From: Nanobdellota archaeon
GTDB lineage: Archaea; Nanobdellota; Nanobdellia; PEZQ01
Direction: 5' to 3'
DNA length: 64,000 bases
Assembly: GCA_018220985.1 (NCBI GenBank)
Contig: JAAOXS010000021.1
Span: 24,274-88,273 of the forward strand
Part shown: positions 9,179 through 64,000 of the stretch, in pieces
How positions within the stretch are numbered: position 1 is the first letter of the stretch
Layout of the letters: each line of letters opens with the position of its first letter
Translations under genes and position numbers: made by a program
The notes under the pieces: generated by a model
What the model was told of the DNA's origin: nothing
What the model saw: the letters and a program-made list of their open reading frames with translations, nothing else
Databases searched by the model: none

Positions 9179-10060
9179 ATGCTCGAGAAAGAATTCTCAA
9201 AAGCCTGGAAATACTATTTTGAAAATTACAAGAAACTAACAGTAATACCAATAATTCTTGTTTTAATAATGGTAAGCTCATTAGGTTACTCTAAAATCAC
9301 TACAGGAGAATTCTTTCAAAAAGACGTGAGCGTGAAAGGAGGTTATACAGCAACAATAACTCTTAACCAAGAAATAAACTTACAAGAATTAACGCAACAA
9401 CTCGGAAACCCTGAAATACGACTTGTAAAAGACACATTACGAATAAACATTCAAGGATACGAAATACTAAGCGAACAAGAACTTGTAAGCACTGAAATAA
9501 TAACTCTTTTCCAAGAAATTTATGGGATAACCCTCACTAATGATGATGTTTCAATAGGCTTTCAAAGCGCTGCAATAGCCAAAACATTTTTTGAACAAGC
9601 AACAAAAGCACTGCTATTAGCATTTTTATTAATGGGTGGAGTTGTTTTTTACTATTTCAGAAAACCTGCACCGTCAATTTCTATAATACTATCAACATTT
9701 CTTGACGTGATATGCATCCTCGGCGCAATGAATATTCTTGGAATACAAGTTTCAACAGCGTCAATAGGAGCATTACTAATGATTGTAGGATACTCAACAG
9801 ACAGTGACATACTATTATCAACAAACATTTTGAAAAGAAAAGACAAACCATTAAGTGAAAGAATGCTAAGAGCATTCAAAACAGAACTAACCGTTGACAT
9901 GGCAGCGTTTGTGGTTTTCGCAACAATGTTCTTATTATCAAATGTGGTTATGATAAAAGAAATAGCATTAATATTATTATTTGGAATACTGTTCGATTTG
10001 ATTAACACATGGTTTGGAACAGCTGCGCTCCAACGAATTCTGGTGGTGGAGAAAAAATGA
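9179..10060 (+). CDS. secF: protein-export membrane protein SecF
   Basis: Contains DVSVKGGYTATITL and MIVGYSTDSDILLSTNILKRK, with six predicted TM segments. It is adjacent and translationally coupled (ATGA) to secD. Confidence 0.75.
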   Translation: MLEKEFSKAWKYYFENYKKLTVIPIILVLIMVSSLGYSKITTGEFFQKDVSVKGGYTATITLNQEINLQELTQQLGNPEIRLVKDTLRINIQGYEILSEQELVSTEIITLFQEIYGITLTNDDVSIGFQSAAIAKTFFEQATKALLLAFLLMGGVVFYYFRKPAPSISIILSTFLDVICILGAMNILGIQVSTASIGALLMIVGYSTDSDILLSTNILKRKDKPLSERMLRAFKTELTVDMAAFVVFATMFLLSNVVMIKEIALILLFGILFDLINTWFGTAALQRILVVEKK

Positions 10061-47658: not shown

Positions 47659-50600
47659 ATGGGGAGAAGAGCAATACTAACAACTTTAGTAATACTTGCT
47701 CTACTACCTGTTGTAATAAACGAAGTAAAAGCGGAAACATGTACAACAGACAGTGACTGTTCTAATTACACGTACTGCGATGCAGACGCGTGTAATGGAC
47801 GAATAACAGGAATATGCGACACATCAATAAGTGAATGCGCTTGCTGCATTACTGACGGAGACTGTTCTTCAGGATACACTTGTTCAACTGAAGGTTATTG
47901 CTACGACAATAGTAATTATTGTGGTGACGGAACCTGCCAGGATGAAGAAGACTGTGAACAATGCCCTAGTGATTGCGGAACTTGCAGTGTAGCATCTGTT
48001 TGCGGCGACGGAGTATGCGACGCTGACGAAGATGCAACAAACAATTTCTGCGAAGCAGACTGTACTTATACAACAATTGGAACGGACGTGTGCGGTAACG
48101 AAATTTGCGAAGGAAGCGAAAACTGCGATAACTGTTACGTAGACTGTTGCGAAGATAATACAATAACTGTAGAATGCGGTAATGGAATCTGCGAAGACGG
48201 AGAAGACTGCGGAAGTTGCTCTACGGACTGTTGGTGTGACTGGGAACAGGAACAGCAACAAAAAATAGACGCTTACAAAGCAACATTAATCTTAACTTCA
48301 GAAGAGCAAACACTTGCAAGCACAATAATAAACTCTTTGAAAGCAGTTCATACAGCAGCAACAGCATACATTTCAAGCCCTTCAGGAACAACAGCGTACA
48401 ACCTTGCGTACCAGCAAAGATTGAAAGAACAATCTTTTTGGGATTTAGAAAAAAATTATGCGGGAACAACGCTTAAAAAATCAGGAGAATACGCAATACT
48501 AAACTATGGCTCTGGAAGAGTAAACGCGTGGGAAGACGAATTCGGAAACTTCCAAATCAACGGACTGGACATCATAGAAGGTTCAGGAATAAGATTTGGC
48601 GCGCACATATGGTACAATGACTGGGAAAACAAATACGGAATTGGAATGTGGGTTGACTGGGATGATAACGCCAGAAACTATGAAGAAAACATTAAGAACG
48701 GGTGGATGGACGGTGAAGACGTTGCAAGACAAGCTCAAGCAGCTGAAGACGTTAAAGAAATAATTGCAACATTCACAATCACAGACGACAATAAAGAAAT
48801 CGCAAATGAACTAATAAATTACATGGACACAGTTTACGACCTTGCAAACGAATTTACATTAAACTCTGATAAAATCTACAAATTACAATACGAAGCAGAA
48901 CTACTAAATGCAAGAATGAACGGCGTAGCCGAAGGACTAAGCTGCAACGACGTTAACGAAGTTTCAACATACATTCTCGTCTACTCAAAAGGAAGTGTAG
49001 AAGTATGGGACGACGAATTCGGAGGAAAAACACTTGCACAACACAAAAGACTACTTGACACAGACTACGTTAAACTCGAAATTAACGCTGGCGGATGCGA
49101 CGATTGGAGTGAAAGAGGATGGATGGGAACCAACTTACAATGGAGCAGAACCGTAACAGAAAACGAAAATTACAGAACAGCAATAACGAACGCGAGGAAA
49201 TCAGCTTGGAGAGAAGCTGAAGCACTAAGACAAAGATACATGGTCTTAGAAGCAAAAAAACTTTACACGTTCACAGTTGAAGAAGAAAACATAGCGAAAG
49301 AAATAATCGAAAAACTCAACAAGTTCAAAGAAGAAATAAAAGAATTCGAAGCAGGAAAAGTAACAGCATACAAACTACACTACGACAGCATACTACTAAC
49401 CTCAGAACTTGAAGGATACTCATGGGCATACCCTGAAATCGCAAAAGGCATAGGAGAATACGTACTATTAAACGGACCTGGAATTCCAGATGTTTGGAAA
49501 GATGAATTCGGAGACATAGAACTAGGACACAACTTAAGAGTTCACTTTGGAGAAAACATAGAATTTAACTTAAACAGATGGTGCGACGAATGGAGAGACT
49601 TCTGCGGATTTAACTCATGGATGCAATGGGGGCAACTAAGAGAAGACTACAGAGACGACATAAAAAAAGCTGAAAGAGACGGATGGAGAGAAGCTGAAAG
49701 AAAAAAACGAAAAACACTTGCTGACAAATTTAGAAAAGAATTGCAAGGAGAAATAGAAGACGTTTACTCATCAGCAATAAAATCATTCGTATCAAAAGCA
49801 AAAAATTTCATGGAAGGCGGAGCAACAGCTTACGATGTTGAAATGACAAGACTTGAAGCATCATACTTACTGCAAAAAAACATTGACGAACAAAAAAGAG
49901 ACTTCATAATGGTCCTAGACTTAGGAGAAGACGTTCCACCACCAGAAGCATGGCTTGACTGGGAAACAGGAGAAATCCACATAGGCGGCTGGAGAGAACT
50001 TGTACTAACATCCAAAGACGGTAAAGAAGATGTTATTGCAGGAATGGACACATGGTGCGATGATTGGGATGGATTCTGCGGAGGAAACATTTGGATGAAC
50101 TGGCCTGAATGGGACAGAATAAAAACAGACATTCACCGCGCGAACAACGACTTTTGGAGACAGAAACGTGAAGAAGAGATTAAACCAATGCTCAGTGAAA
50201 TAATCAGTAAAAAAACAACTTACTCAAGCAAAGACCAAACACTAATCAACGAATTATCTGACTTAATAGAAACAGTAGAAGAACTTGGTGAAAACTATGA
50301 CACGCTAGGTGTTGAAAACTTTCAATACAGTATCTTAGTTAAGAGAGATGTCATAAACGATAAACTAATTACTGCACAAGACGGAAGCTTAATAGAAATT
50401 GCAGTTGCAGAAGCAGAAGGATACCATGATTATGATGACTGGATGCAAAGACTTTATGGAGTAGCAGTTTACACAGGAGAAAAAATTGACTTAGTAATAA
50501 GATTTTACGAAAAATTCACACCATTCTTCCTTGAAGCAATTGAAAAAACACAAGGATCAGAATTCGCAATAGAAATAGAAATAGTTTGGAAAGAATGGCA

Positions 50601-51966
50601 AGAAGGCATGGAAAAATCCATTGAAAACGCTTACGAAAAATACGAAAAAGAACAAAGCGGGGTAAGATTAACAAAACTTGTTGAACAACGTGAAAAAATA
50701 ATTTCAGAAGTTGACAACATAGAAACAAAAGTTAACTCTTACGAAAACAATGAGATAAGCCTAAGTCAACTAAGAAAATACGTGAACAGTATATACTATA
50801 AAATACAAGCCTACGACCAAGAAGTAGCTTATTACGCTGCAATGTCTGGACAAGAATTCCCAACATTCGAATTTGTAAACGTAAAAATAAACACGGAACA
50901 CGTTAAAATGGAATTATACGAGAAAGATTTTGAATACAGATTTGGAGGCGGAATTGGAGTATTCCAAGCAAAAACGTACAACAACGACCAAGAAAGAGAA
51001 TACGAATTAGAATTCGCACCAACAAATGTTGAAACAACAAAAGTTGTGAAACAAACTTCATCAGATTCATTTATTCAAGAAGAATATAATGAACAAGGAT
51101 TTGAAGAATTCACAGGAAACTTTATAGCAGTAACAGGCAGACCAATACAACCAATAACCACAGATGTGAAAGCAATAAGTTCAACAGCAGTTTCAACAAC
51201 GCTCGCTAAAGGAGATGTGCAAGACACTGAAATTGAAATCTTTGACGAAGACGTAGCTCGAGAAATAGAATTCGAGAAACAAAAAATTGTTGAAGAAAGA
51301 TACGAAGACATAAGCATGTTCAGAGAGCAAGAAATGGAAACTAAATCAATTAACAAAATAATCAACAAAAAGAAAGGTTACAGCGGAGAAAGAATAATAA
51401 TTAAAGGAATTAAGCCAAGACTTAAACTCAGCACTCAAATGACTGATACAGAAATAATGCGCTTAGCGGAAGAACTGAAAACGAAATGGAGCGAAGCAGC
51501 AGAACTAGGATACATTGACGACGCAGTATACAACATGAACATGCATATAGATAACTTTCCAGCACTGCAAGAAGCAATAACTTCTTGGGGAGATACAGCA
51601 CTATCCTTAAAACTAAACTATAAAGAAAACTCTGTTTTCGAATTCTCATTCAAAACAGAAGATGGATACATAGGATGGGTTAAGTATGGAATAGCTGAAA
51701 ACGCTGGAAGCGGAAGTGACAACATATACATAGAATTAGACTTTGAATCGTTACTACGACTAAGAAATTGGTGGGAAGACAAACTCAAAAACGCTGAAGG
51801 AATAATGGACGTAATAGGGGCTGTACCAGGATTTTTAGGTAACATGATTGGAATGCTTATGAACGGAGAAATAGTAATACAACCATTCGGTTCAATTTCA
51901 AAAATACCTCAATTCCTAAGCGTATTCTTCGAAGGAATAGTTCACACAACAGGAGTAGAAATATAA
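47659..51966 (+). CDS. giant secreted repeat protein (1435 aa): Cys-rich modules plus Trp-rich repeats
   Basis: Has the signal peptide MGRRAILTTLVILALLPVVINEVKA. Four CG(D/N)GxC..(E/D)(D/N)C..C..DC modules are followed by four or more repeats of about 160 aa, each containing W.DEFG...W.D/W..G/W....W. Confidence 0.7.
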   Translation: MGRRAILTTLVILALLPVVINEVKAETCTTDSDCSNYTYCDADACNGRITGICDTSISECACCITDGDCSSGYTCSTEGYCYDNSNYCGDGTCQDEEDCEQCPSDCGTCSVASVCGDGVCDADEDATNNFCEADCTYTTIGTDVCGNEICEGSENCDNCYVDCCEDNTITVECGNGICEDGEDCGSCSTDCWCDWEQEQQQKIDAYKATLILTSEEQTLASTIINSLKAVHTAATAYISSPSGTTAYNLAYQQRLKEQSFWDLEKNYAGTTLKKSGEYAILNYGSGRVNAWEDEFGNFQINGLDIIEGSGIRFGAHIWYNDWENKYGIGMWVDWDDNARNYEENIKNGWMDGEDVARQAQAAEDVKEIIATFTITDDNKEIANELINYMDTVYDLANEFTLNSDKIYKLQYEAELLNARMNGVAEGLSCNDVNEVSTYILVYSKGSVEVWDDEFGGKTLAQHKRLLDTDYVKLEINAGGCDDWSERGWMGTNLQWSRTVTENENYRTAITNARKSAWREAEALRQRYMVLEAKKLYTFTVEEENIAKEIIEKLNKFKEEIKEFEAGKVTAYKLHYDSILLTSELEGYSWAYPEIAKGIGEYVLLNGPGIPDVWKDEFGDIELGHNLRVHFGENIEFNLNRWCDEWRDFCGFNSWMQWGQLREDYRDDIKKAERDGWREAERKKRKTLADKFRKELQGEIEDVYSSAIKSFVSKAKNFMEGGATAYDVEMTRLEASYLLQKNIDEQKRDFIMVLDLGEDVPPPEAWLDWETGEIHIGGWRELVLTSKDGKEDVIAGMDTWCDDWDGFCGGNIWMNWPEWDRIKTDIHRANNDFWRQKREEEIKPMLSEIISKKTTYSSKDQTLINELSDLIETVEELGENYDTLGVENFQYSILVKRDVINDKLITAQDGSLIEIAVAEAEGYHDYDDWMQRLYGVAVYTGEKIDLVIRFYEKFTPFFLEAIEKTQGSEFAIEIEIVWKEWQEGMEKSIENAYEKYEKEQSGVRLTKLVEQREKIISEVDNIETKVNSYENNEISLSQLRKYVNSIYYKIQAYDQEVAYYAAMSGQEFPTFEFVNVKINTEHVKMELYEKDFEYRFGGGIGVFQAKTYNNDQEREYELEFAPTNVETTKVVKQTSSDSFIQEEYNEQGFEEFTGNFIAVTGRPIQPITTDVKAISSTAVSTTLAKGDVQDTEIEIFDEDVAREIEFEKQKIVEERYEDISMFREQEMETKSINKIINKKKGYSGERIIIKGIKPRLKLSTQMTDTEIMRLAEELKTKWSEAAELGYIDDAVYNMNMHIDNFPALQEAITSWGDTALSLKLNYKENSVFEFSFKTEDGYIGWVKYGIAENAGSGSDNIYIELDFESLLRLRNWWEDKLKNAEGIMDVIGAVPGFLGNMIGMLMNGEIVIQPFGSISKIPQFLSVFFEGIVHTTGVEI

Positions 51967-53889: not shown

Positions 53890-55386
53890 TTACTTAACAC
53901 GCCACTTAACACCACTATCAGTGTCCTCTAATTCAACACCCGCTTTCTTGAGTGCTGTGCGAATATCATCACTCGTAGCGTAATCCTTTTTAGAACGCGC
54001 TTCCACGCGAAGAGAAATTAACTGCTCCATTAAACCATCAATTTTGTTTTTCTTTTTTAGAGAACCACTTACTTTCTTAACTAACTCTTTCCAACTTAAA
54101 GTAACTTTAACACTAGAACCGCTTGTAACACCAATAACTATTTCCTTATCCAATCTTAAACCAAGAACTCTTAACAATTCCTTTACTGTCTCAACTGATT
54201 TTTCAAGAATTGACTTCTTATTACCCAAACTTTGAGAAACCTTTTTCAAAAAAAGCATTGTAACATCAACAGCTTTTGGAGTGTTTAAATCATCATCCAT
54301 AGCTTTCTCAAAACTAACTCTGTACTCCCTAATCCACTTATTCAAACTCTCGCTTTTACCGCCAGTGCTCTCCTGAACTCGTTCAAAAACTCTGTAAACG
54401 CGCAGAAGCAACGCTTCAGAATTCCGCACGTTTGACTTGTTAAAATCAATTTGCTTACGATAATGAGAAGAAACCAATGTTAACCTTAAAGCTTCCCAAT
54501 CATACATTTTCAAAGCATCCCTAATCAACAACATATTACCAGTACTTTTACTCATCTTTTCACCATTCAAAGTCATGAAAGTAGTGTGCATCCAATAATT
54601 CGCGAAACGCTTACTAGTAGCGGCTTCACTCTGAGCAATTTCATTAGGGTGATGTAAATACAAATGATCATAACCACCACCATGAATGTCCAAAGTTTCT
54701 CCCAAATATTTCATACTCATAGCAGAACATTCCACATGCCAACCAGGTACGCCAACACTCCAAGGACTATCCCACTTCATAATTACATTAGAATCAACTT
54801 TTCGCCAAAGAGTAAAATCATTAGGATCATTTTTATTAGTGTCTGCGTGCACACGGCACTTTGATTTTTTTTGAAGAATGGGTGTTGGCGAAAGAGTGCC
54901 ATAGTCTTTAAACTTACGCACTTTAAAGTATACGTTACCATCCTTTTCATACGCGTAACCACTTTTAATAATTCGTTTTGTTAAATCAATCATTTCCTGT
55001 ACGTGTTGTGTTGCACGAGGATAAATATCAGCCCTATTCAAATTTAGCGCGTCTAAATCTTCAAAATACCTTTGAATGAATTTTTCAACAAGAGCGTACG
55101 GATCAACTTTTCTTTCCTTAGCCCTTTTCTCAATTTTATCTTCACCCTCATCAGCATCACTTGTAAGATGACCTACATCAGTGAAGTTCTGCACGTGAGT
55201 AACCTCATACCCTTTGTAACGTAAATACCTAACGAGAACATCCCAATAAGAATACGTGCGCGCATGACCCAAATGCAAATCATCATAAACTGTTTGTCCG
55301 CAAGTATAAATGGAAACCTTACCTTTATGAATTGGTTTGAAAACCTCTTTCTTACGCGATAAACTATTATAAATTTTGAAACTCAT
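53890..55386 (-). CDS. cysS: cysteinyl-tRNA synthetase
   Basis: HIGH motif DDLHLGHARTY; KMSKS motif GEKMSKSTGN; zinc-site context CGQTVY, HVEC. Confidence 0.9.
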   Translation of the reverse strand: MSFKIYNSLSRKKEVFKPIHKGKVSIYTCGQTVYDDLHLGHARTYSYWDVLVRYLRYKGYEVTHVQNFTDVGHLTSDADEGEDKIEKRAKERKVDPYALVEKFIQRYFEDLDALNLNRADIYPRATQHVQEMIDLTKRIIKSGYAYEKDGNVYFKVRKFKDYGTLSPTPILQKKSKCRVHADTNKNDPNDFTLWRKVDSNVIMKWDSPWSVGVPGWHVECSAMSMKYLGETLDIHGGGYDHLYLHHPNEIAQSEAATSKRFANYWMHTTFMTLNGEKMSKSTGNMLLIRDALKMYDWEALRLTLVSSHYRKQIDFNKSNVRNSEALLLRVYRVFERVQESTGGKSESLNKWIREYRVSFEKAMDDDLNTPKAVDVTMLFLKKVSQSLGNKKSILEKSVETVKELLRVLGLRLDKEIVIGVTSGSSVKVTLSWKELVKKVSGSLKKKNKIDGLMEQLISLRVEARSKKDYATSDDIRTALKKAGVELEDTDSGVKWRVK

Positions 55387-55431: not shown

Positions 55432-55461
55432 TCACTCCTTGCAGGGACAATCACTTTTCAT
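55432..55461 (-). promoter_or_regulatory. leader mini-ORF MKSDCPCKE* upstream of cysS
   Basis: Own translation: ATG AAA AGT GAT TGT CCC TGC AAG GAG TGA. It ends 45 nt upstream of the cysS ATG. The core AGTGAT-NNN-CCC-NNN is shared with the trp and val leaders. Confidence 0.5.
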
Positions 55462-59005: not shown

Positions 59006-59076
59006 AGCCAGACCCCGGAGTTGAACCGGGTTGCACGGCTCTGCAGGCCGCTGCATAACCGTTCTGCCAGTCTGGC
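59006..59076 (-). tRNA. tRNA-Cys (anticodon GCA)
   Basis: Hand-folded cloverleaf: GCCAGAC/GTCTGGC acceptor, GCGGC-CTGCAGA-GCCGT anticodon arm, CCCGG-TTCAACT-CCGGG T arm. Confidence 0.85.
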
Positions 59077-59112: not shown

Positions 59113-60393
59113 TTAAAGGTTTGTCCTTACACCATTAGGGTAATTCTTGTGCTTTGGAAAACTAACTATAGAATCAGGCTGAAACGAGAAAACGCTTTTC
59201 CTAGCAGCGGGATTATTATTAAGAATAATTGAATCCACCCCTTTTTTATACCTATTATTATTTAGTCTGAATCTTTTAGCTAAAAACTCGTTGGCGTAAC
59301 CCACATGATGGTTTCGAACCATGAACTCCAACAATTTAGGGTGAAGTATTTGCATTGGAAATTGATTCAAATTAAGGTTGACTGTCCACAAATCTAAATC
59401 TTTGAAGTAATACCATTCAATAAATTTAGCTACTAACGGGTGCTCAAGATTTGTTAATGGCTCAAACACTTTTGCAACAGTAAAATTGTTAATGTCCACA
59501 TTAGTGTTATTAGTTATTTTTACGCTGCCAACGTTTTTCAAACCTTTATTAACTATGTTCTCAGCAGCGCTAAAATGATGACAATGAATTCTTACCTTTG
59601 TCCCTTCATCATTAGCTTCGTTTTTGTGAGTTCCACAAGAACAGCGATGATCTGACATCATTAATTTATGAAACTCAATTTTTTGAGATGGGTTTTTTAA
59701 ATCAACTTCATACTCTTCAACTTTTACACCTAATAAGCTTGGTATTTGAAAACTTCCAGCATGACCAATGAATCTTTGTTTCTTATTATTCCAACTGCTA
59801 GTGTTATCAAAAGTTATTTCTCGTAAATTTACGACTTCATTAGATTTTTTTTCATAAGCGTTCTCAAAAATTTTCATGAAATACTCTGATTCTTTTTCAC
59901 CAAACCTTTTGAAAACTTTATCAAAAATTTCTTGCTTAGAATTAGTCATAAGCGCAGCTCTAATTTCTGAACTTGGCTGGTATAGTACGCGATTTTTTTC
60001 AAATTCCCCATCGATTGTTATAAGTCGTGTTAATGAGTAACCCACAAGTTTAGTTGTGTAATACACGAAATCAGGTGCTGGATCTTTTTTTGGATGCGAG
60101 TGAATCCGGCGTAAAGTTAGGAATTCTAAATCAAACTGGTTTCCAGTTGCTTGATTGGTTGATGATAATGGAATGTTCATGTAAGGAAAAAAATTTGCTC
60201 CCCCTAATCCAAGTTTTTTTGCTCTACTAAAATAAGTATTAACAATTCTTTTAACTTCTGATTTCGGAATTGAATAAACACTTTGCTCAAGCAGGTTGGA
60301 AAGATCGTCTTGGTTTAATCTTAACTTCTGCAAACTTTCAACATCAAAAATTGAGTTGTAATACTCTTCTCTTTTGAATTCATCAACTACCAT
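59113..60393 (-). CDS. hypothetical protein with SWIM-type zinc finger (426 aa)
   Basis: CSCGTHKNEANDEGTKVRIHCHH fits the SWIM pattern CxCx(n)CxH. Confidence 0.45.
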   Translation of the reverse strand: MVVDEFKREEYYNSIFDVESLQKLRLNQDDLSNLLEQSVYSIPKSEVKRIVNTYFSRAKKLGLGGANFFPYMNIPLSSTNQATGNQFDLEFLTLRRIHSHPKKDPAPDFVYYTTKLVGYSLTRLITIDGEFEKNRVLYQPSSEIRAALMTNSKQEIFDKVFKRFGEKESEYFMKIFENAYEKKSNEVVNLREITFDNTSSWNNKKQRFIGHAGSFQIPSLLGVKVEEYEVDLKNPSQKIEFHKLMMSDHRCSCGTHKNEANDEGTKVRIHCHHFSAAENIVNKGLKNVGSVKITNNTNVDINNFTVAKVFEPLTNLEHPLVAKFIEWYYFKDLDLWTVNLNLNQFPMQILHPKLLEFMVRNHHVGYANEFLAKRFRLNNNRYKKGVDSIILNNNPAARKSVFSFQPDSIVSFPKHKNYPNGVRTNL

Positions 60394-60430: not shown

Positions 60431-61594
60431 TTAATCCCTTAACAAGAATTTTTCAAGCACTTTCTTTGCTTTAACACGCTCCTTCTGATGATTAGCCAAA
60501 TAAGAGTTCACTTTTTCAATTGCAATTGCTTTCAACTCACCAGAAAGCATATCACCATTCTTATAACTCTCATAAATTTCTTTTAACTTTTTATCATCAG
60601 GCTCGAATAAGAAATTAAGCAACTGATAAGACATGTCAACATCAGGATTACCTCCTTTTTCCCTATGCTCTTTTACAGTATCACGACCACCACTAAAAGC
60701 GCTTCCAATCTTTTTCTTAACCTCTTTCGCAGAATCAGTTGTGTAAATCGCGCTCGACGGATCTGAAGAACTCATCTTCCCACCTTCCTTCAAACCAGGC
60801 ATTAACACATTATGAATCGCGGCAGGCTTATAATAACCAAGCTTAGGCATAACATCTCGTGAAACCCTAAAATGCGGGTCCTGATCAATACCGTGAGGGA
60901 TAAGACAAGGCACATTCTTACCCTGACGAACACTCTCCAAAAAAGCAGGAACTGCCTGAAAACTCGTGTAAAAAATGCTACCAATATTCGTACTATTATT
61001 AAAACCGAAAACAGCTTTAATTGTTGAAAAAGTAATTTTTTTAGCAACACGAATAGCATTATTATACAACGTTTTCGAATAAAACGTGTCAATTAAGATT
61101 TCAGTATTTTTTGGCTTAAAACCAAGAGCGATAATGTCCAAAGCATCACTTAACGCTTGATTAGTTGTTTGCTCAAGCTCAAGATCCTGCCTGAACATGA
61201 ACTTTTCATCATCAGTCATTTGAATTACTAATTTTGCTTTGAACTTATCCTGCAACCACTTAGTGAACACGAAAGGCATTAAATGACCAAGATGCATTCG
61301 CCCACTCGGACCCCTTCCTGTGTACAAATAGAACTTCTCTTTTTTCTCGTACTTGTCAAGCAACCAGTTCAAATCACGGTGTGAAAAGAACATACCTCTA
61401 CGCAACATGAAATGAGCAGGTCCAGTGTGCTTTTCAATTCGCTTAATTAAAACATCATTAATTCGCACAGTTCCGAACTGTTTGATTAAATTATTATAAT
61501 CAATTTTACCGGACACCTCCCACGGCGTCACGACAAAACCTGTTTTATCAGTCATATTATAACTAACAAGTTCTCTTGATTTAATATTTTTCAT
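60431..61594 (-). CDS. trpS: tryptophanyl-tRNA synthetase (archaeal/eukaryotic type)
   Basis: HIGH motif GRMHLGHL; KMSKS variant GGKMSSSDP; N-terminal VTPWEV...DYNNLIKQFG. 4-bp overlap with trpB2. Confidence 0.9.
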   Translation of the reverse strand: MKNIKSRELVSYNMTDKTGFVVTPWEVSGKIDYNNLIKQFGTVRINDVLIKRIEKHTGPAHFMLRRGMFFSHRDLNWLLDKYEKKEKFYLYTGRGPSGRMHLGHLMPFVFTKWLQDKFKAKLVIQMTDDEKFMFRQDLELEQTTNQALSDALDIIALGFKPKNTEILIDTFYSKTLYNNAIRVAKKITFSTIKAVFGFNNSTNIGSIFYTSFQAVPAFLESVRQGKNVPCLIPHGIDQDPHFRVSRDVMPKLGYYKPAAIHNVLMPGLKEGGKMSSSDPSSAIYTTDSAKEVKKKIGSAFSGGRDTVKEHREKGGNPDVDMSYQLLNFLFEPDDKKLKEIYESYKNGDMLSGELKAIAIEKVNSYLANHQKERVKAKKVLEKFLLRD

Positions 61595-62850
61595 TCTAAC
61601 TCACCTCGCAAGAACTGTTCGTAACCTGTCAAGTCTAGTAACCCATGCCCGCTCAAACAAAACACTAAAACCTGATTCTTTCTTCTCTTAGCATTTTCTA
61701 TAACACTTTTTATTGCATGACAACTTTCCGGAGCAGGAATAATACCTTCAGTTTCAGCGAACAATTTTCCAGCTTCAAAAACACTTTTCTGATTATAATA
61801 CTCTGTTTTCATTAAACCATGCTCTTTTATAGCTGACAATAACGGTGCCACTCCATGATACCTTAACCCGCCTGCATGTATTGCCGGTGGTACGAACTCG
61901 CATCCAAGCGAATGCATTTTTAGCATAGGCGTTATTTTTGCAGTGTCACCAAAATCGTATTTGAACTCGCCTTTTCCCATACTCGCACAACTTTCTGGCT
62001 CTACACCAATTAATTCAGCGCCAGTATTATAGAAAGGTAATGCTATTCCTCCAAAATTACTTCCACCACCCACACAACCAATTACTGCATCCGCTTTTTC
62101 AGGCAATTGCTCTTTAGCTTCCAAACCAATTATTGATTGATGTATTAACACGTGAGTTAGCACTGAACCAAGACTATACTTGTAGTTTTCTAATTTCATG
62201 CAAGTTTCTAAAGCTTCACTTATTGCTATTCCTAAACTTCCCGGATGCTCTGGATTTTGGTCTAATAATTTTTTACCAAAACTTGTTTCTTCATTTGGGC
62301 TGGGCAGAACATGTCCGCCATAAATATTCATAATCGTTTTCCTTCCAGGTTTCTGATAATAACTACTTCTTACCATGAATACTTTACAATCCAAATCGAA
62401 TAATTTGCACGCAAGACTTAATGCACTACCCCACTGCCCAGCACCTGTTTCAGTTATTAAACCTTTCAAGCCCTCTTTCTTCGCGCTAAAAGCTTGCGCT
62501 AACGCAGTATTTAATTTATGACTTCCAGTAGGGCTCGCACCCTCATACTTATAATAAATCCTGCAATTAGTCCCAATTTTTTTTTCCAAATTCTTAGCCC
62601 TAATTAATGGCGTTGGCCTGTATTTTTTGTAGAATTCCAAAATTTTTTCGGGTATTGGAATGAACCGTTCCTTGCTGATTTCTAATTCCATACTTTCTTT
62701 TGGAAAAATTTGTTTTAATTCTTCAGGATTTATTGGTTTTTTTGTTGCAGGATTTATTGGCGGACTAACCTTGAAAGGTAAGTCTGCAGTTATGTTGTAA
62801 TAATGTTTTGGTACTTTACCAGGGACACTCAACCCTTTTATTGTTCTCAC
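61591..62850 (-). CDS. trpB2: tryptophan synthase beta-like protein, TrpB2 type
   Basis: Contains PKHYYNITADLP, the PLP-lysine motif EGASPTGSHKLNTA, GCVGGGSNFGG and GLRYHGVAP. The start is GTG at 62850 with an in-frame stop immediately upstream. No trpA is visible nearby. Confidence 0.85.
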   Translation of the reverse strand: MRTIKGLSVPGKVPKHYYNITADLPFKVSPPINPATKKPINPEELKQIFPKESMELEISKERFIPIPEKILEFYKKYRPTPLIRAKNLEKKIGTNCRIYYKYEGASPTGSHKLNTALAQAFSAKKEGLKGLITETGAGQWGSALSLACKLFDLDCKVFMVRSSYYQKPGRKTIMNIYGGHVLPSPNEETSFGKKLLDQNPEHPGSLGIAISEALETCMKLENYKYSLGSVLTHVLIHQSIIGLEAKEQLPEKADAVIGCVGGGSNFGGIALPFYNTGAELIGVEPESCASMGKGEFKYDFGDTAKITPMLKMHSLGCEFVPPAIHAGGLRYHGVAPLLSAIKEHGLMKTEYYNQKSVFEAGKLFAETEGIIPAPESCHAIKSVIENAKRRKNQVLVFCLSGHGLLDLTGYEQFLRGELE

Positions 62851-62860
62851 TAGTTTTCAT
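62816..62860 (-). promoter_or_regulatory. second, out-of-frame mini-ORF MKTSENNKRVECPW* overlapping the trpB2 start
   Basis: It starts with ATG at 62860, and SD AAGGTGA (62869-62875) ends 8 nt upstream of that ATG. It ends ...GAG TGT CCC TGG TAA, 33 nt inside trpB2. Its 5' context AAATTAATATGAAAA is identical to that of the cysS leader. Confidence 0.3.
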
Positions 62861-62903
62861 ATTAATTTTCACCTTAGAAAGAGTGTTCTCTAGCAAAATC
62901 TTA

Positions 62904-62933
62904 TCATAATTTTTGCCAGGGATAATCACTCAT
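62904..62933 (-). promoter_or_regulatory. leader mini-ORF MSDYPWQKL* upstream of trpB2-trpS
   Basis: Own translation: ATG AGT GAT TAT CCC TGG CAA AAA TTA TGA. It ends 53 nt upstream of the trpB2 start. The ATG lies about 28 nt from the centre of TTTATAAAA (62957-62965). Confidence 0.5.
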
Positions 62934-62956
62934 AAAAATAAAGTATTCAATTTTGC

Positions 62957-62965
62957 TTTATAAAA
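62957..62965 (-). promoter_or_regulatory. TATA-like box (TTTATAAAA) for the trp leader transcript
   Basis: The spacing to the leader ATG is about 28 nt, compatible with the known archaeal TATA-to-TSS distance of about 26-27 nt. Confidence 0.3.
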
Positions 62966-62977
62966 CTAACGAAAAAA

Positions 62978-62987
62978 ATTTAAAAAT
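62978..62987 (+). promoter_or_regulatory. TATA-like box (ATTTAAAAAT) for the val leader transcript
   Basis: Its centre lies about 28 nt upstream of the val leader ATG at 63011. Confidence 0.3.
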
Positions 62988-63010
62988 CAAATCATGTTTA
63001 AATTATTGTT

Positions 63011-63043
63011 ATGAATCTAAAAAGTGATCGCCCCGTACAATAG
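63011..63043 (+). promoter_or_regulatory. leader mini-ORF MNLKSDRPVQ* upstream of valS
   Basis: Own translation: ATG AAT CTA AAA AGT GAT CGC CCC GTA CAA TAG. It ends 39 nt upstream of the valS ATG. Confidence 0.5.
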
Positions 63044-63082
63044 ACCGATTACTTTATTATTCAATTTCGAGAGACTTTAGAC

Positions 63083-64000
63083 ATGACTATGGATAAGCGT
63101 TACAACGTGGAAGAAACAGAAAAGAAATGGGCGAAAAAATGGGTTGAAAACAAAACTTACGAATTCGTAGAAACCAAGAAAAACTACGTAATCGATTCCC
63201 CACCACCATACCCTTACGTATCCTTACATGCTGGGAACTTTTTTAATTTCGCTTACCAAGATTTTGTGGCACGATACAAACGACTTAGAGGATTCTCAGT
63301 ATTACACCCTTGGGGTTGGGACTGTCATGGATTACCAGCTGAAATTTTTATAGAAAAAAAATATGGGAAAACCGCTGAAAAAATAGGCATTGAAGCATTC
63401 AAAGAACTATGCGAAAAACACATATTAGAAAACATTGAAAACATTCGCGAAAACCAAGCTCAAGTAATTGGGATGAGTGTTGACTGGAGTAAACAATATG
63501 CAACAATGACTGATGATTACAAAACTCGCGTCCAAAAATCCTTTCTTGAAATGGTAAAAAAAAAATACGTTTACAGAAAAGAAGCACCCGTATCATGGTG
63601 CGTGAGTTGCCATACAGCCATTGCAGAAGCGCAAACTGATAAAATAGAAAGAGAAACCAATTTTTACCACATAAACTTACCATTAAAAAACAAAAAAGGC
63701 TCAATAACAATTGCAACAACTCGACCTGAACTAATGCCCTCATGTGTCGCGGTCTTCGTTAACCCAAAAGATGAACGTTACAAAGAATTCATAGGAGAAA
63801 TAGTTAAAATACCCTTCTTCGGACAAGAAGTTAAAATAATCGCTGACGAGAAAGCAGACCCTGAATTCGGCACTGGCGCAGTTTACCACTGCACTTTTGG
63901 AGATAAAACTGACTGGGAATGGGTTGTAAAACACAAACTGCCAATAATAAAATCAATAGAAGAAAACGGAAAACTCAACGAAAACACGAAATTTTTAAAA
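63083..64000 (+). CDS. valS: valyl-tRNA synthetase, N-terminal 306 codons (continues beyond the window)
   Basis: Own translation: MTMDKRYNVEETEKKWAKKW...VIDSPPPYPYVSLHAGNFFNFAYQDFVARYKRLRGFSVLHPWGWDCHGLP...ATTRPELMPSCVAVFVNPKDERY...ADPEFGTGAVY. This is the ValRS pattern. It is absent from the ORF track because no stop falls within the window. Confidence 0.85.
   Translation, partial: MTMDKRYNVEETEKKWAKKWVENKTYEFVETKKNYVIDSPPPYPYVSLHAGNFFNFAYQDFVARYKRLRGFSVLHPWGWDCHGLPAEIFIEKKYGKTAEKIGIEAFKELCEKHILENIENIRENQAQVIGMSVDWSKQYATMTDDYKTRVQKSFLEMVKKKYVYRKEAPVSWCVSCHTAIAEAQTDKIERETNFYHINLPLKNKKGSITIATTRPELMPSCVAVFVNPKDERYKEFIGEIVKIPFFGQEVKIIADEKADPEFGTGAVYHCTFGDKTDWEWVVKHKLPIIKSIEENGKLNENTKFLK

Follow-up and report, generated by a model that had tools for sequence, protein, structure and literature searches.

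Short leader ORFs as candidate +1 frameshift sensors of charged tRNA ahead of aminoacyl-tRNA synthetase genes in a DPANN clade

Known +1 shift sites and cognate-codon leaders

Slippage into the +1 frame at CCC-N is suppressed by EF-P. Such slippage is on record as an error that m1G37 suppresses, and tRNA-Pro stalled on CCC-C makes a +1 shift (PMC4519876). CUU_U is the conserved shift site of prfB, CUU_A is the shift site of Ty1 with a hungry A-site codon, and the efficiency of shifting at hungry codons is set by the limiting tRNA supply (PMC5009743). In the reviews searched, no aminoacyl-tRNA synthetase (aaRS) gene was found to be regulated in nature through starvation-type hungry codons. Similarly, the literature searched, with incomplete coverage, described no aaRS genes under frameshift control and no archaeal cognate-codon leaders. 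To our knowledge, archaea have no T-boxes and no stringent-response-style attenuators.

Herein, short leader ORFs ahead of aaRS genes are described in a 64-kb window, which is the whole stretch of DNA that was analysed, and in relatives of its source organism, an uncultured MAG. From the arrangement of their codons and frames, the leaders are somewhat more probably than otherwise programmed +1 frameshift sensors of charged tRNA, in which a cognate sense codon serves as the hungry A-site codon.

The trpB2-trpS leader and its relatives

The features of the trp leader locus, in the direction of reading, are as follows.

62957 to 62964, minus strand: TATA box TTTATAAA of the trp leader, a putative promoter element that ends 23 nt before ATG 62933
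62904 to 62933, minus strand: leader ORF 1, the Trp-codon mini-ORF, kept in L001, L002/L003 and L007
62925 to 62929, minus strand: SD-like GUGAU, which stands 3 nt 5' of the shifty CCC and is complementary to AUCAC of the canonical 16S 3' end
62916 to 62921, minus strand: candidate shift site 1, CCC (P site) and then UGG (A site, cognate 'hungry' codon)
62816 to 62920, minus strand: +1-frame path from site 1, 33 open codons, via ATG 62860 in frame, to the ORF 2 stop
62869 to 62875, minus strand: Shine-Dalgarno (SD) AAGGUGA, read directly from the sequence, 8 nt before ATG 62860
62816 to 62860, minus strand: leader ORF 2, MKTSENNKRVECPW and a stop, with CCC UGG UAA as its last codons
62816 to 62824, minus strand: candidate shift site 2, CCC UGG UAA, where a +1 slip (CCU GGU AAA GUA CCA ...) would lead into the trpB2 reading frame
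61591 to 62850, minus strand: trpB2 open frame, 419 aa, a TrpB-like PLP enzyme (NCBIfam NF009057, E = 5e-190)
60431 to 61594, minus strand: trpS (TrpRS), a 387-aa ORF whose start overlaps the trpB2 stop (ATGA, 4 bp), with a GAGGT SD 8 nt upstream

The original prediction had described a mini-ORF on the minus strand, 62933 to 62904 (ATG AGT GAT TAT CCC TGG CAA AAA TTA TGA, MSDYPWQKL and a stop), with 53 nt between its stop and GTG 62850 and with an overlapping trpB2-trpS pair downstream. The sequence, strand and spacing were read again and agree in full, and the pair consists of TrpB2 (NF009057) and the 387-aa TrpRS ORF. The start of trpB2 had been placed at GTG 62850, which now looks unlikely. 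This GTG is simply the first start codon in the trpB2 open frame, and no SD occurs within 17 nt of it, whereas ATG 62860, in another frame, has AAGGTGA at 8 nt; GTG 62850 is probably not the real start. The second Trp site at 62824 to 62816 and the systematic opening of the +1 frame to downstream genes had not been part of that prediction.

No SD lies ahead of ATG 62933, and leader ORF 1 is probably translated from a leaderless 5' end, since the TATA box ends 23 nt upstream of its ATG. The absence of an SD, the TATA box and a leaderless start had all been proposed before, and the spacing agrees with them. In eight of the ten leaders, 22-24 nt separate the end of a TTTAWAWD box from the leader ATG, and the box-to-first-ATG spacing of the long ORFs of the window peaks at the same distance (22-25 nt). 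The window cys leader lacks a clean TATA where one would be expected, and the Cys leader ATG of L007 stands 2 nt past a tRNA-Cys gene. These spacings are those of an archaeal leaderless mRNA, whose TATA box is centred about 26-28 nt upstream, and transcription of the leaders would then start at the start codon or only a few nt from it.

Two sister leaders in the window, for cysS and valS, had also been named, and both were located.

63011 to 63043, plus strand: valS leader, ATG AAT CTA AAA AGT GAT CGC CCC GTA CAA TAG (MNLKSDRPVQ and a stop), candidate shift site 63032-63037
55432 to 55461, minus strand: cysS leader, ATG AAA AGT GAT TGT CCC TGC AAG GAG TGA (MKSDCPCKE and a stop), candidate shift site 55446-55441

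The +1 frame of the valS leader ends at TAG 63078-63080, 2 nt before ATG 63083 of the following gene, which is valS (match P0243). The +1 frame of the cysS leader has 19 open codons, and its UGA stop overlaps the cysS ATG 55386 (AUGA). On both strands of the window, AGTGATNNNCCC has three matches against 0.16 expected, and at least three matches were obtained in 0 of 100 shuffles. All three are the trpB2-trpS, cysS and valS leaders, each in the correct orientation, and they precede the only three aaRS genes among all ORFs of at least 265 aa in the window. The codon that follows AGTGATNNNCCC is cognate in each case: TGG for trp, TGC for cys and GTA for val. The leader pattern is not due to chance, because the matches exceed expectation and each stands before an aaRS gene with the cognate codon.

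The comparison was extended to a sample of 5 genomes and 3 amino acids, in which 13 sites were found (the window, L001, L002, L007 and L192). L003 is an independent assembly with a sequence identical to that of L002, and the two were counted once. Conservation of the mini-ORF upstream of trpS in relatives had been one of the proposed tests, and the mini-ORF is present there as MKRDYPWN (L002/L003), MKSGHLWQ (L007) and MSDCPRRNN (L001), each followed by a stop. The cognate codon lies directly 3' of the shifty codon at 12 of the 13 sites; the exception is the L001 trp site, with CGG instead of TGG. The position that had been claimed for the Trp codon is supported, since a Trp codon occupies the equivalent position at 6 of the 7 Trp sites. 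Tandem Trp sites are present in three genomes, and in L002 and in L007 they are 40 nt apart.

The conserved unit consists, in this order, of an SD-like GUGRU, a 3-nt gap, one of the two classic +1-shifty codons CCC and CUU, the cognate codon, and a 0-frame stop 1-4 codons on. The P-site codon is CCC at nine sites and CTT at four. The Pro codon is CCC at all nine Pro sites, compared with 10% of the Pro codons in 54 window genes, and CTT makes up 17% of the Leu codons in the same genes. The base after CTT is U in all four CTT sites. At 11 of the 13 sites the shift codon is preceded by GTGRT at a distance of exactly 3 nt; the two sites without an exact GTGRT are window site 2 (GAGTGT) and L192 cys (AUGAUCC). 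The SDs of the window genes are of the AGGTG, GAGGT or GGTGA type, and we infer from them an anti-SD with which GUGRU would pair. The GUG within GUGRU might itself start a +1 ORF.

The leader was searched for more widely. None was found upstream of valS or metS in L194, L196 and L197, which are more distant members of the ValRS clade, nor at 64 metagenomic TrpRS loci from diverse archaea, all at most 71% identical. The leader was also absent from other aaRS genes of L002 and L007 (class II synt_2). A search for further leaders of the same build (TATA, ATG, CCC/CTT, early stop), which covered the window and also L001, L002, L007 and L192, gave none beyond those linked to aaRS genes. P0242 was the closest ValRS to the L001 ValRS query (72% identical). 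A codon-agnostic ATGAAAAGTGATNNNCCC scan of genome contigs was set aside as uninformative; the matches listed were essentially random bacterial ones, and the few archaeal ones among them (L042, L060) lay inside long ORFs.

The reading frames around the sites were then compared with shuffled sequence. At all 13 sites the 0 frame meets a stop 1-4 codons past the cognate codon. At all 11 testable sites the +1 frame comes as close as 9 nt to the downstream start or passes it, fuses in frame with the ORF that follows, or leads in frame into a second site, and the count becomes 13 of 13 when two further fusions are added. The same openness test was passed by the -1 frame at 2 of 11 sites and by the 0 frame at none of 11. 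The per-site shuffle probabilities are 0.01-0.25; multiplied together they give about 6e-11, which becomes about 3e-9 when two possibly non-independent sites are left out. For the open in-frame chain from site 1 to ORF 2 of the trp leader, the shuffle probability is 0.01, and the +1 frame of shift site 2 is open for 1231 nt, up to the trpB2 stop. The spacers are short, so that an open frame is in itself not rare.

At fusion sites the downstream ORFs are without translation signals of their own: trpS of L001 has no SD, trpB2 of the window has only GTG 62850 without an SD, and cysS of L192 starts with TTG, likewise without an SD. The sole start of a 185-aa downstream ORF in L002 is a GTG inside the SD-like motif. 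At six leaders the downstream aaRS has its own start codon, mostly with a recognisable SD, which contains GGTG in four genes, is GAGGCGAG at L007 trpS and is a weak GAGAG at the window valS. These start codons and SDs indicate that a frameshift is not strictly needed for the expression of those six genes.

Proposed frameshift sensor and competing explanations

The trp mini-ORF is, by our estimate from codons and frames, somewhat more probably than not the earlier member of a pair of Trp-codon sensors in the trpB2-trpS leader and part of the aaRS leader family. Transcription would start at or adjoining ATG 62933, and the ribosome would make M-S-D-Y-P, with CCC then in the P site, UGG in the A site and GUGAU 3 nt upstream. 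When Trp-tRNA is plentiful, Trp would be inserted and termination would follow 3 codons on. With no gene start within 50 nt of that point, trpB2-trpS expression would be off or basal. When charged tRNA-Trp is scarce, the A site would be empty and peptidyl-tRNA-Pro would slip from CCC to CCU. The slipped ribosome would read the +1 frame for 33 codons, through ATG 62860 with its own SD (AAGGUGA). At the second CCC UGG, directly before UAA, a second +1 slip would lead into the trpB2 frame, and trpS translation would follow via the ATGA overlap. The predicted net output is that low Trp-tRNA charging gives more TrpB2 and TrpRS. The cysS and valS leaders would follow the same scheme with UGC and GUA, the +1 frame delivering ribosomes to the aaRS start codon. 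In all leaders, GUGRU in a putative SD-like role, together with CCC or CUU, would hold the ribosome over the cognate codon. That this DPANN clade controls its aaRS genes and trpB2 in this way, by leaderless +1-frameshift leaders in which charged-tRNA supply sets the slippage, we regard as evenly balanced on the features of the leaders.

The main rival is translational attenuation by stalling only, with no frameshift, in which a stall at the hungry codon remodels the mRNA or unmasks a downstream SD or start, as in the mycobacterial polycysteine leaderless sORFs and in ermC-type leaders. We consider it unlikely but worth real weight. The leaderless architecture and cognate codons that it calls for are present, its precedent is documented in mycobacteria (bioRxiv 10.1101/834739), and an SD precedes several of the downstream aaRS genes. 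For the cysS leader, the MFE fold (-8.5 kcal/mol, z = +0.8) also pairs AUUGUCCCU with the cysS SD region, but this pairing is weak and not conserved, and it is absent from the fusion-type leaders, which have no SD. Across six leaders the z values of the folds range from -2.4 to +1.0 and most lack significance; neither a common helix nor one that hides the SD in all of them was found. Stalling alone leaves unexplained why the P-site codon is CCC or CUU instead of the preferred CCA, CCT or TTA, why the +1 frame is open at every site and ends at or fuses with the gene start, and why the fusion-type downstream ORFs lack an SD. Each site also has one cognate codon and no run.

In a simpler arrangement, the GUG of GUGRU (AUG in L192 cys) would start a +1-frame uORF coupled to the aaRS gene, and the mini-ORF and its cognate codon would be incidental. 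The +1 ORF always opens with an in-frame GTG and reaches the gene, and the L192 cys ATG ORF ends 4 nt ahead of the TTG start. Such coupling is improbable, as it does not account for the cognate codon in the other frame at 12 of 13 sites or for the rare CCC codon; no SD lies upstream of the GUG, and it is the ATG that stands at a constant distance from the TATA box, with the GTG 4-13 nt further downstream.

The model implicit in the original prediction was a nascent-peptide arrest, TnaC-like, in which an S-D-x-P core senses free Trp or the A-site aminoacyl-tRNA. This core is indeed common to the three window leaders and L001, but it is not kept in the other relatives, where R or G replaces S, G replaces D and L replaces P; x varies among Y, C, R, H and S. 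These replacements all preserve GTGRT-NNN-C(CC/TT). The site peptides vary accordingly (SDYPW, RDYPW, SGHLW, GDSLW, SGRLC, GGCPV, MIRPC). The constraint is at the nucleotide level and not on the S-D-x-P peptide, and peptide-level conservation of S-D-x-P was ruled out by the comparison of relatives. The peptides of 6-10 residues are also too short for the exit tunnel. Because the nucleotides are kept rather than the peptide, and because Pro is always the rare CCC, whose exclusive use an arrest peptide leaves unexplained, we regard a TnaC-like arrest peptide as quite improbable.

An RNA element of the T-box kind, in which the cognate codon would be offered to an uncharged tRNA for pairing with its anticodon, is very improbable. 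It would agree with the display of a cognate codon downstream of a conserved purine-rich motif, and in the val leaders CCC GUA falls within the loop of a hairpin. This hairpin is not kept in L192, however, and the 70-130 nt from leader ATG to gene are too short for a T-box and have no conserved fold. Rfam gave no match over the whole window at the gathering threshold, nor in 62700-63200 at E <= 10. Translation is what the ATG, the frame, the stops and the spacing from the TATA box, all of them conserved, point to. A hairpin-plus-T-run scan of 62700-63200 found no terminator, its pattern being that of bacterial intrinsic terminators, which would miss archaeal oligo-T ones; in the other leaders, by eye, T-runs of at least 5 are missing from most spacers and present in L192 val. 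RNA-structure explanations were set aside, the folds of the six leaders being mostly no better than those of shuffles, with no Rfam match and with no terminator of the bacterial type in 62700-63200.

Chance similarity, or a promoter-proximal DNA motif unrelated to translation, might be suspected in an AT-rich genome with many short ORFs, but it is the least credible reading given the excess of matches over expectation, aaRS genes as the exclusive neighbours, and 12 of 13 cognate codons kept across 5 genomes.

Comparison with known systems

If the frameshift reading is true, the leaders are, as far as known, the first cis-acting tRNA-charging sensor described in Archaea. Every leader element lies within about 40 nt, and leaders of about 30 nt would be a compact, portable sensor of one amino acid's charged tRNA. 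As regards annotation, the start codons assigned in these genomes to trpB2, cysS, trpS and the ORFs beside them are probably wrong, and gene callers do not see the leaders.

The classical bacterial leaders share the direction of the response. In E. coli pheST (pheM) and trpL and in T-box systems, operon expression rises when the cognate charged tRNA falls, as proposed here. The archaeal leaders differ in host, in having one cognate codon per site and in having no T-box, and no conserved alternative hairpins were found in them. The mycobacterial 'Cys ribulon' similarly uses unannotated leaderless short ORFs with cognate codons and the ribosome as an amino-acid sensor (bioRxiv 10.1101/834739). 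However, it is bacterial, relies on runs of Cys codons and an RNA duplex that sequesters the RBS, and serves Cys metabolism rather than aaRS genes, with neither a frameshift nor a shifty codon.

In the tRNA-Pro slippage work of Gamper, Hou and co-workers, a P-site CCC beside a vacant A site is a well-known setting for a +1 shift, and the model sequence CCC-CG is that of the L001 site (PMC4519876). Slippage is an error there, whereas it would be exploited in the aaRS leaders. Yeast Ty1 (CUU_AGG_C), ABP140 and EST3 and Gallant's starvation shifts in E. coli combine a CUU P site with a tRNA-limited A-site codon, and the L001 site CCC_CGG has a rare Arg codon used as in hungry-codon shifting. In Ty1 the tRNA is constitutively rare and the Gag:Gag-Pol ratio is fixed, whereas here the codon is cognate to the regulated aaRS, which implies feedback. 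A natural regulatory role for 'hungry-codon' frameshifting would thereby be provided, if the reading holds.

The likeness to prfB is the most detailed. Both have a short 0-frame ORF with an internal SD-like element 3 nt 5' of the shift codon, and both have a slow A-site codon whose decoding relies on what the downstream gene encodes; the main product lies in the +1 frame or is reached by way of it (PMC5009743). The prfB site AGGGGG-UAU-CUU-UGA may be set beside L007 site 2, AGGUGAU-UAU-CUU-UGG, and CUU_U is identical in four sites here. The differences are also clear. In prfB the A site holds the stop UGA, which is read by RF2; here it holds a sense codon (UGG, UGC, GUA or CGG) whose cognate tRNA is charged by the downstream aaRS, except for CGG (L001 trp). 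The leaders here are archaeal, GUGRU is predicted to pair further inside the anti-SD, and CCC is the commoner shift codon. The +1 ORF here mostly ends at a gene start codon (coupling) and does not encode protein, and the Trp leaders have two sites in series. The aaRS leaders are thus an analogue and not a member of the prfB family, because the A-site codon is a sense codon and not UGA. If the proposed sensor is real, it is a sense-codon analogue of prfB autoregulation, and autoregulatory +1 frameshifting reaches beyond stop codons (prfB) and polyamines (antizyme) to sense codons as reporters of the product's own activity.

Leaders in the window

The Trp mini-ORF upstream of trpB2 was read back from the window sequence exactly as originally predicted, with 53 nt between its stop and GTG 62850 and no SD before its ATG at 62933. 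The downstream gene pair was also borne out. The 419-aa ORF is a TrpB-like PLP enzyme, TrpB2 (Pfam PALP; NCBIfam NF009057, E = 5e-190), and the 4-bp overlap with trpS is present. The leader sits in a divergent intergenic spacer of this DPANN 'Nanoarchaeota archaeon' MAG (GC about 0.34), with the valS side on the plus strand. Proteins P0001 and P0121, which tie the sequence to that MAG, match at 100% identity.

62964-62957, minus: TATA-like TTTATAAA, ending 23 nt 5' of the mini-ORF ATG
62933..62904, minus: Trp mini-ORF, ATG AGT GAT TAT CCC TGG CAA AAA TTA TGA (MSDYPWQKL*), from the sequence
62816-62875 including its SD, minus: ORF 2, 14 codons, MKTSENNKRVECPW*, ending CCC TGG TAA; AAGGTGA SD 8 nt before ATG 62860
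61591..62850, minus: trpB2 open frame, 419 aa; GTG 62850 is the first start codon in frame
60431..61594, minus: TrpRS ORF, 387 aa, overlapping trpB2 by 4 bp
63011..63043, plus: valS leader MNLKSDRPVQ*, upstream of valS ATG 63083; valS named through P0243, a valine--tRNA ligase
55461..55432, minus: cysS leader MKSDCPCKE*, upstream of cysS (53890..55386, minus)

The valS and cysS leaders share the build of the Trp mini-ORF, GTGAT-NNN-CCC-cognate codon. On both strands of the 64-kb window, AGTGATNNNCCC was matched 3 times against 0.16 expected, and at least 3 matches occurred in 0 of 100 shuffles. The three matches are the trp, cysS and valS leaders, and trpS, cysS and valS are the only aminoacyl-tRNA synthetase (aaRS) genes detected by Pfam scans of all window ORFs of at least 265 aa. 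The codon after CCC is cognate in all three (TGG, TGC, GTA).

A second CCC TGG lies in ORF 2, which overlaps the annotated trpB2 start in a different frame. The +1 frame from CCC 62921 has 33 open codons, runs in frame through ATG 62860 and ends GAG TGT CCC TGG TAA (62816). A +1 slip at this second CCC would give CCU GGU AAA GUA CCA..., the trpB2 frame. Since no SD is present within 17 nt of GTG 62850, TrpB2 is more likely reached by ribosomes that start at ATG 62860 (or come from the first site) and then shift frame, and GTG 62850 as the trpB2 start is probably an ORF-finder artefact.

At 61556-61594 (minus), the public TrpRS annotation (P0001, 374 aa) begins 13 codons downstream of ATG 61594. 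The 387-aa form looks more likely because ATG 61594 overlaps the trpB2 stop (ATGA) and a GAGGT SD lies 8 nt upstream. A tRNA-Cys gene (59006-59076, minus) is directly 3' of the string of trpB2, trpS and a 426-aa gene. The 426-aa ORF (59113-60393, minus) and a 1435-aa ORF (47659-51966, plus) had no Pfam/NCBIfam match.

Conservation of the nucleotide string

Loci of relatives were retrieved through TrpRS, CysRS and ValRS homologues, and equivalent leaders were found in four further genomes. L002 and L003 are independent assemblies of identical sequence and were treated as one genome.

Leader sites and the course of the +1 frame, entered after a slip at CCC or CTT
Window trp, site 1: leads in frame to site 2
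Window cys: open 19 codons; UGA stop overlaps the cysS ATG (AUGA)
Window val: stop TAG, 2 nt 5' of the valS ATG
L001 trp (TrpRS 83% identical to the window's), ATG AGT GAT TGT CCC CGG...: fused in frame to trpS, which has no SD
L001 val, ...AGT GAT CGC CCC GTA...: stop 26 nt inside valS
L002/L003 trp (TrpRS 73%), site 1, ATG AAA CGT GAT TAT CCC TGG AAT TAA: leads in frame to site 2
L002/L003 trp, site 2, GGT GAT TCT CTT TGG TTC TGA: fused in frame to a 185-aa ORF overlapping trpS
L007 trp (TrpRS 70%), site 1, ATG AAA AGT GGT CAT CTT TGG CAG TGA: leads in frame to site 2
L007 trp, site 2, GGT GAT TAT CTT TGG TTC TGA: stop 2 nt 5' of the ATG
L007 cys, ...AGT GGT CGT CTT TGC TGA: stop 4 nt 5' of the ATG
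L192 cys (CysRS 55%), ATG ATC CGT CCC TGC TGC TGA: fused in frame to cysS
L192 val, ATG TTT AAT GGT GGT TGT CCC GTA TTC GAG TGA: stop abuts the ATG

The conservation upstream of trpS on which the original prediction turned was thus found in L001, L002/L003 and L007. The S-D-x-P peptide core noted for the trp, cysS and valS leaders did not hold in the relatives. The residues change (S to R or G, D to G, P to L; Y, C, R, H or S stand at x), whereas the nucleotide string is kept: GTGRT, 3 nt (mostly Y-R-Y), CCC or CTT, and the cognate codon. With window site 2 included, the cognate codon is present at 12 of 13 sites in five genomes; exact GTGRT is missing at 2 of the 13. The Pro codon is CCC at 9/9 sites, compared with 10% of Pro codons in 54 window genes; CTT makes up 17% of Leu codons in window genes. 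The best-known +1 shift-prone P-site codons are CCC_N and CUU_U. GUGAU(C) complements the 3' end of canonical 16S rRNA; SDs at genes here are AGGTG, GAGGT or GGTGA and belong mostly to genes inside operons, trpS and cysS among them.

At the trp site of the closest relative, L001 (4014-4019, plus), CCC CGG replaces CCC TGG. CGG encodes Arg and is rare, at 4% of Arg codons, and CCC-CG is a well-studied slippery sequence. The change may reflect constitutive shifting, a loss of specificity for Trp or an error of assembly. Cys sites always use TGC (4/4 codons). Val sites always use GTA followed by C or T, so that the +1 codon is UAY and not a stop. Nearly all spacer codons are Y-R-Y, like UAU in prfB. 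The Val leaders of the window (63020-63064, plus) and L001 (3795-3840, minus) have a common 10-bp hairpin (AAAGUGAUCG / CGAUUACUUU), inside which the CCC GUA shift site lies and by which the SD-like element is sequestered; no such hairpin was seen in L192.

No such leader was found at 64 metagenomic TrpRS loci (at most 71% identity) or before valS or metS in three more distant ValRS-clade members. The element is confined to one subclade, in a sample of five genomes and three amino acids with patchy distribution. In L194 (11766-13526), L196 (12351-14169) and L197 (11036-12573), valS has no leader and is flanked by aIF5A and aRF1, a conserved translation-factor synteny. aIF5A is the homologue of EF-P, which suppresses Pro-codon frameshifting in bacteria.

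Leader starts and reading frames

Of 10 leaders, 8 have a TTTAWAWD box whose end lies 22-24 nt 5' of the leader ATG; the window cysS leader has no clean TATA at the expected distance. The first ATGs of long window ORFs show a sharp TATA-spacing peak at 22-25 nt, and the leaderless start suggested originally agrees with this spacing, the 5' end being predicted. The motif's GTG is 4-13 nt 3' of the leader ATG, which places the ATG, not the GTG, at that putative 5' end. For many long ORFs, the first ATG follows the end of a TATA-like box at 22-26 nt (12 long ORFs, e.g. starts 7380 plus, 8099 plus, 20701 plus, 27608 minus), so the genome is probably largely leaderless. The L007 tRNA-Cys(GCA) gene (9282-9357, plus) ends 2 nt before the Cys-leader ATG of cysS, which suggests that a leaderless 5' end could be made there by tRNA 3' processing. 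The tRNA-Cys, the putative sensor and the synthetase are physically linked in this genome.

At 13/13 sites, a 0-frame stop follows the cognate codon within 1-4 codons. A frame was scored when it came within 9 nt of the start or passed it, fused with the downstream ORF, or chained to the next site. This was found for the +1 frame at all 11 testable sites, for the -1 frame at 2 and for the 0 frame at none. Spacer shuffling gave probabilities of 0.01-0.25 per site, with a product of about 6e-11, or about 3e-9 without two possibly non-independent sites. The architecture, conservation and statistics of the leaders are direct observations.

A candidate frameshift sensor

We slightly favour reading the leaders as a hungry-codon +1 frameshift sensor, with its 5' end, slippage, GUGRU role and regulatory direction deduced from sequence. 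With ample charged tRNA, the leader would be read in the 0 frame, with termination at a long distance from the gene. When the A site is empty, the peptidyl-tRNA would slip on CCC or CUU, possibly assisted by the SD-like element, and the ribosome would continue to the aaRS gene or into it. Several aaRS genes still have a start codon and a recognisable SD of their own. For Trp, two serial sites would sharpen the response.

Attenuation by stalling, without a frameshift, has a precedent in the leaderless poly-Cys sORFs of mycobacteria (bioRxiv 10.1101/834739). It is the main rival, and unlikely: it leaves the choice of CCC/CUU, the +1 frame bias and the SD-less fusion ORFs unexplained, and folding of six leaders gave no sequestering helix that is conserved. 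A plain coupled uORF initiated at GUG is very improbable, as it cannot explain why the other frame carries cognate codons. An arrest peptide fails on conservation and is more doubtful still; a T-box-like RNA, which is without support, is slightly less credible again, and chance, against which stands the motif count, can hardly be entertained.

Full-text searches and the reviews of Atkins et al. 2016 (PMC5009743) and of archaeal recoding in 2021 (PMC8211752), a partial coverage of the literature, yielded no report of programmed frameshifting of aaRS genes or of cognate-codon leaders in archaea. What defines the prfB site is an SD-like element placed 3 nt before CUU_U, with a slow codon in the A site, and Ty1 shifting on CUU_AGG_C is driven by a hungry A-site codon (PMC5009743). 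A tRNA-Pro stalled on CCC-C shifts by +1 (PMC4519876). The proposed sensor would follow the logic of prfB, except that the codon read by the gene's own product is a sense codon here and a stop codon in prfB. The known principle would be autoregulatory +1 frameshifting; the new elements would be the sense cognate codon, the occurrence in Archaea and, mostly, coupling to the regulated gene and not fusion with it.
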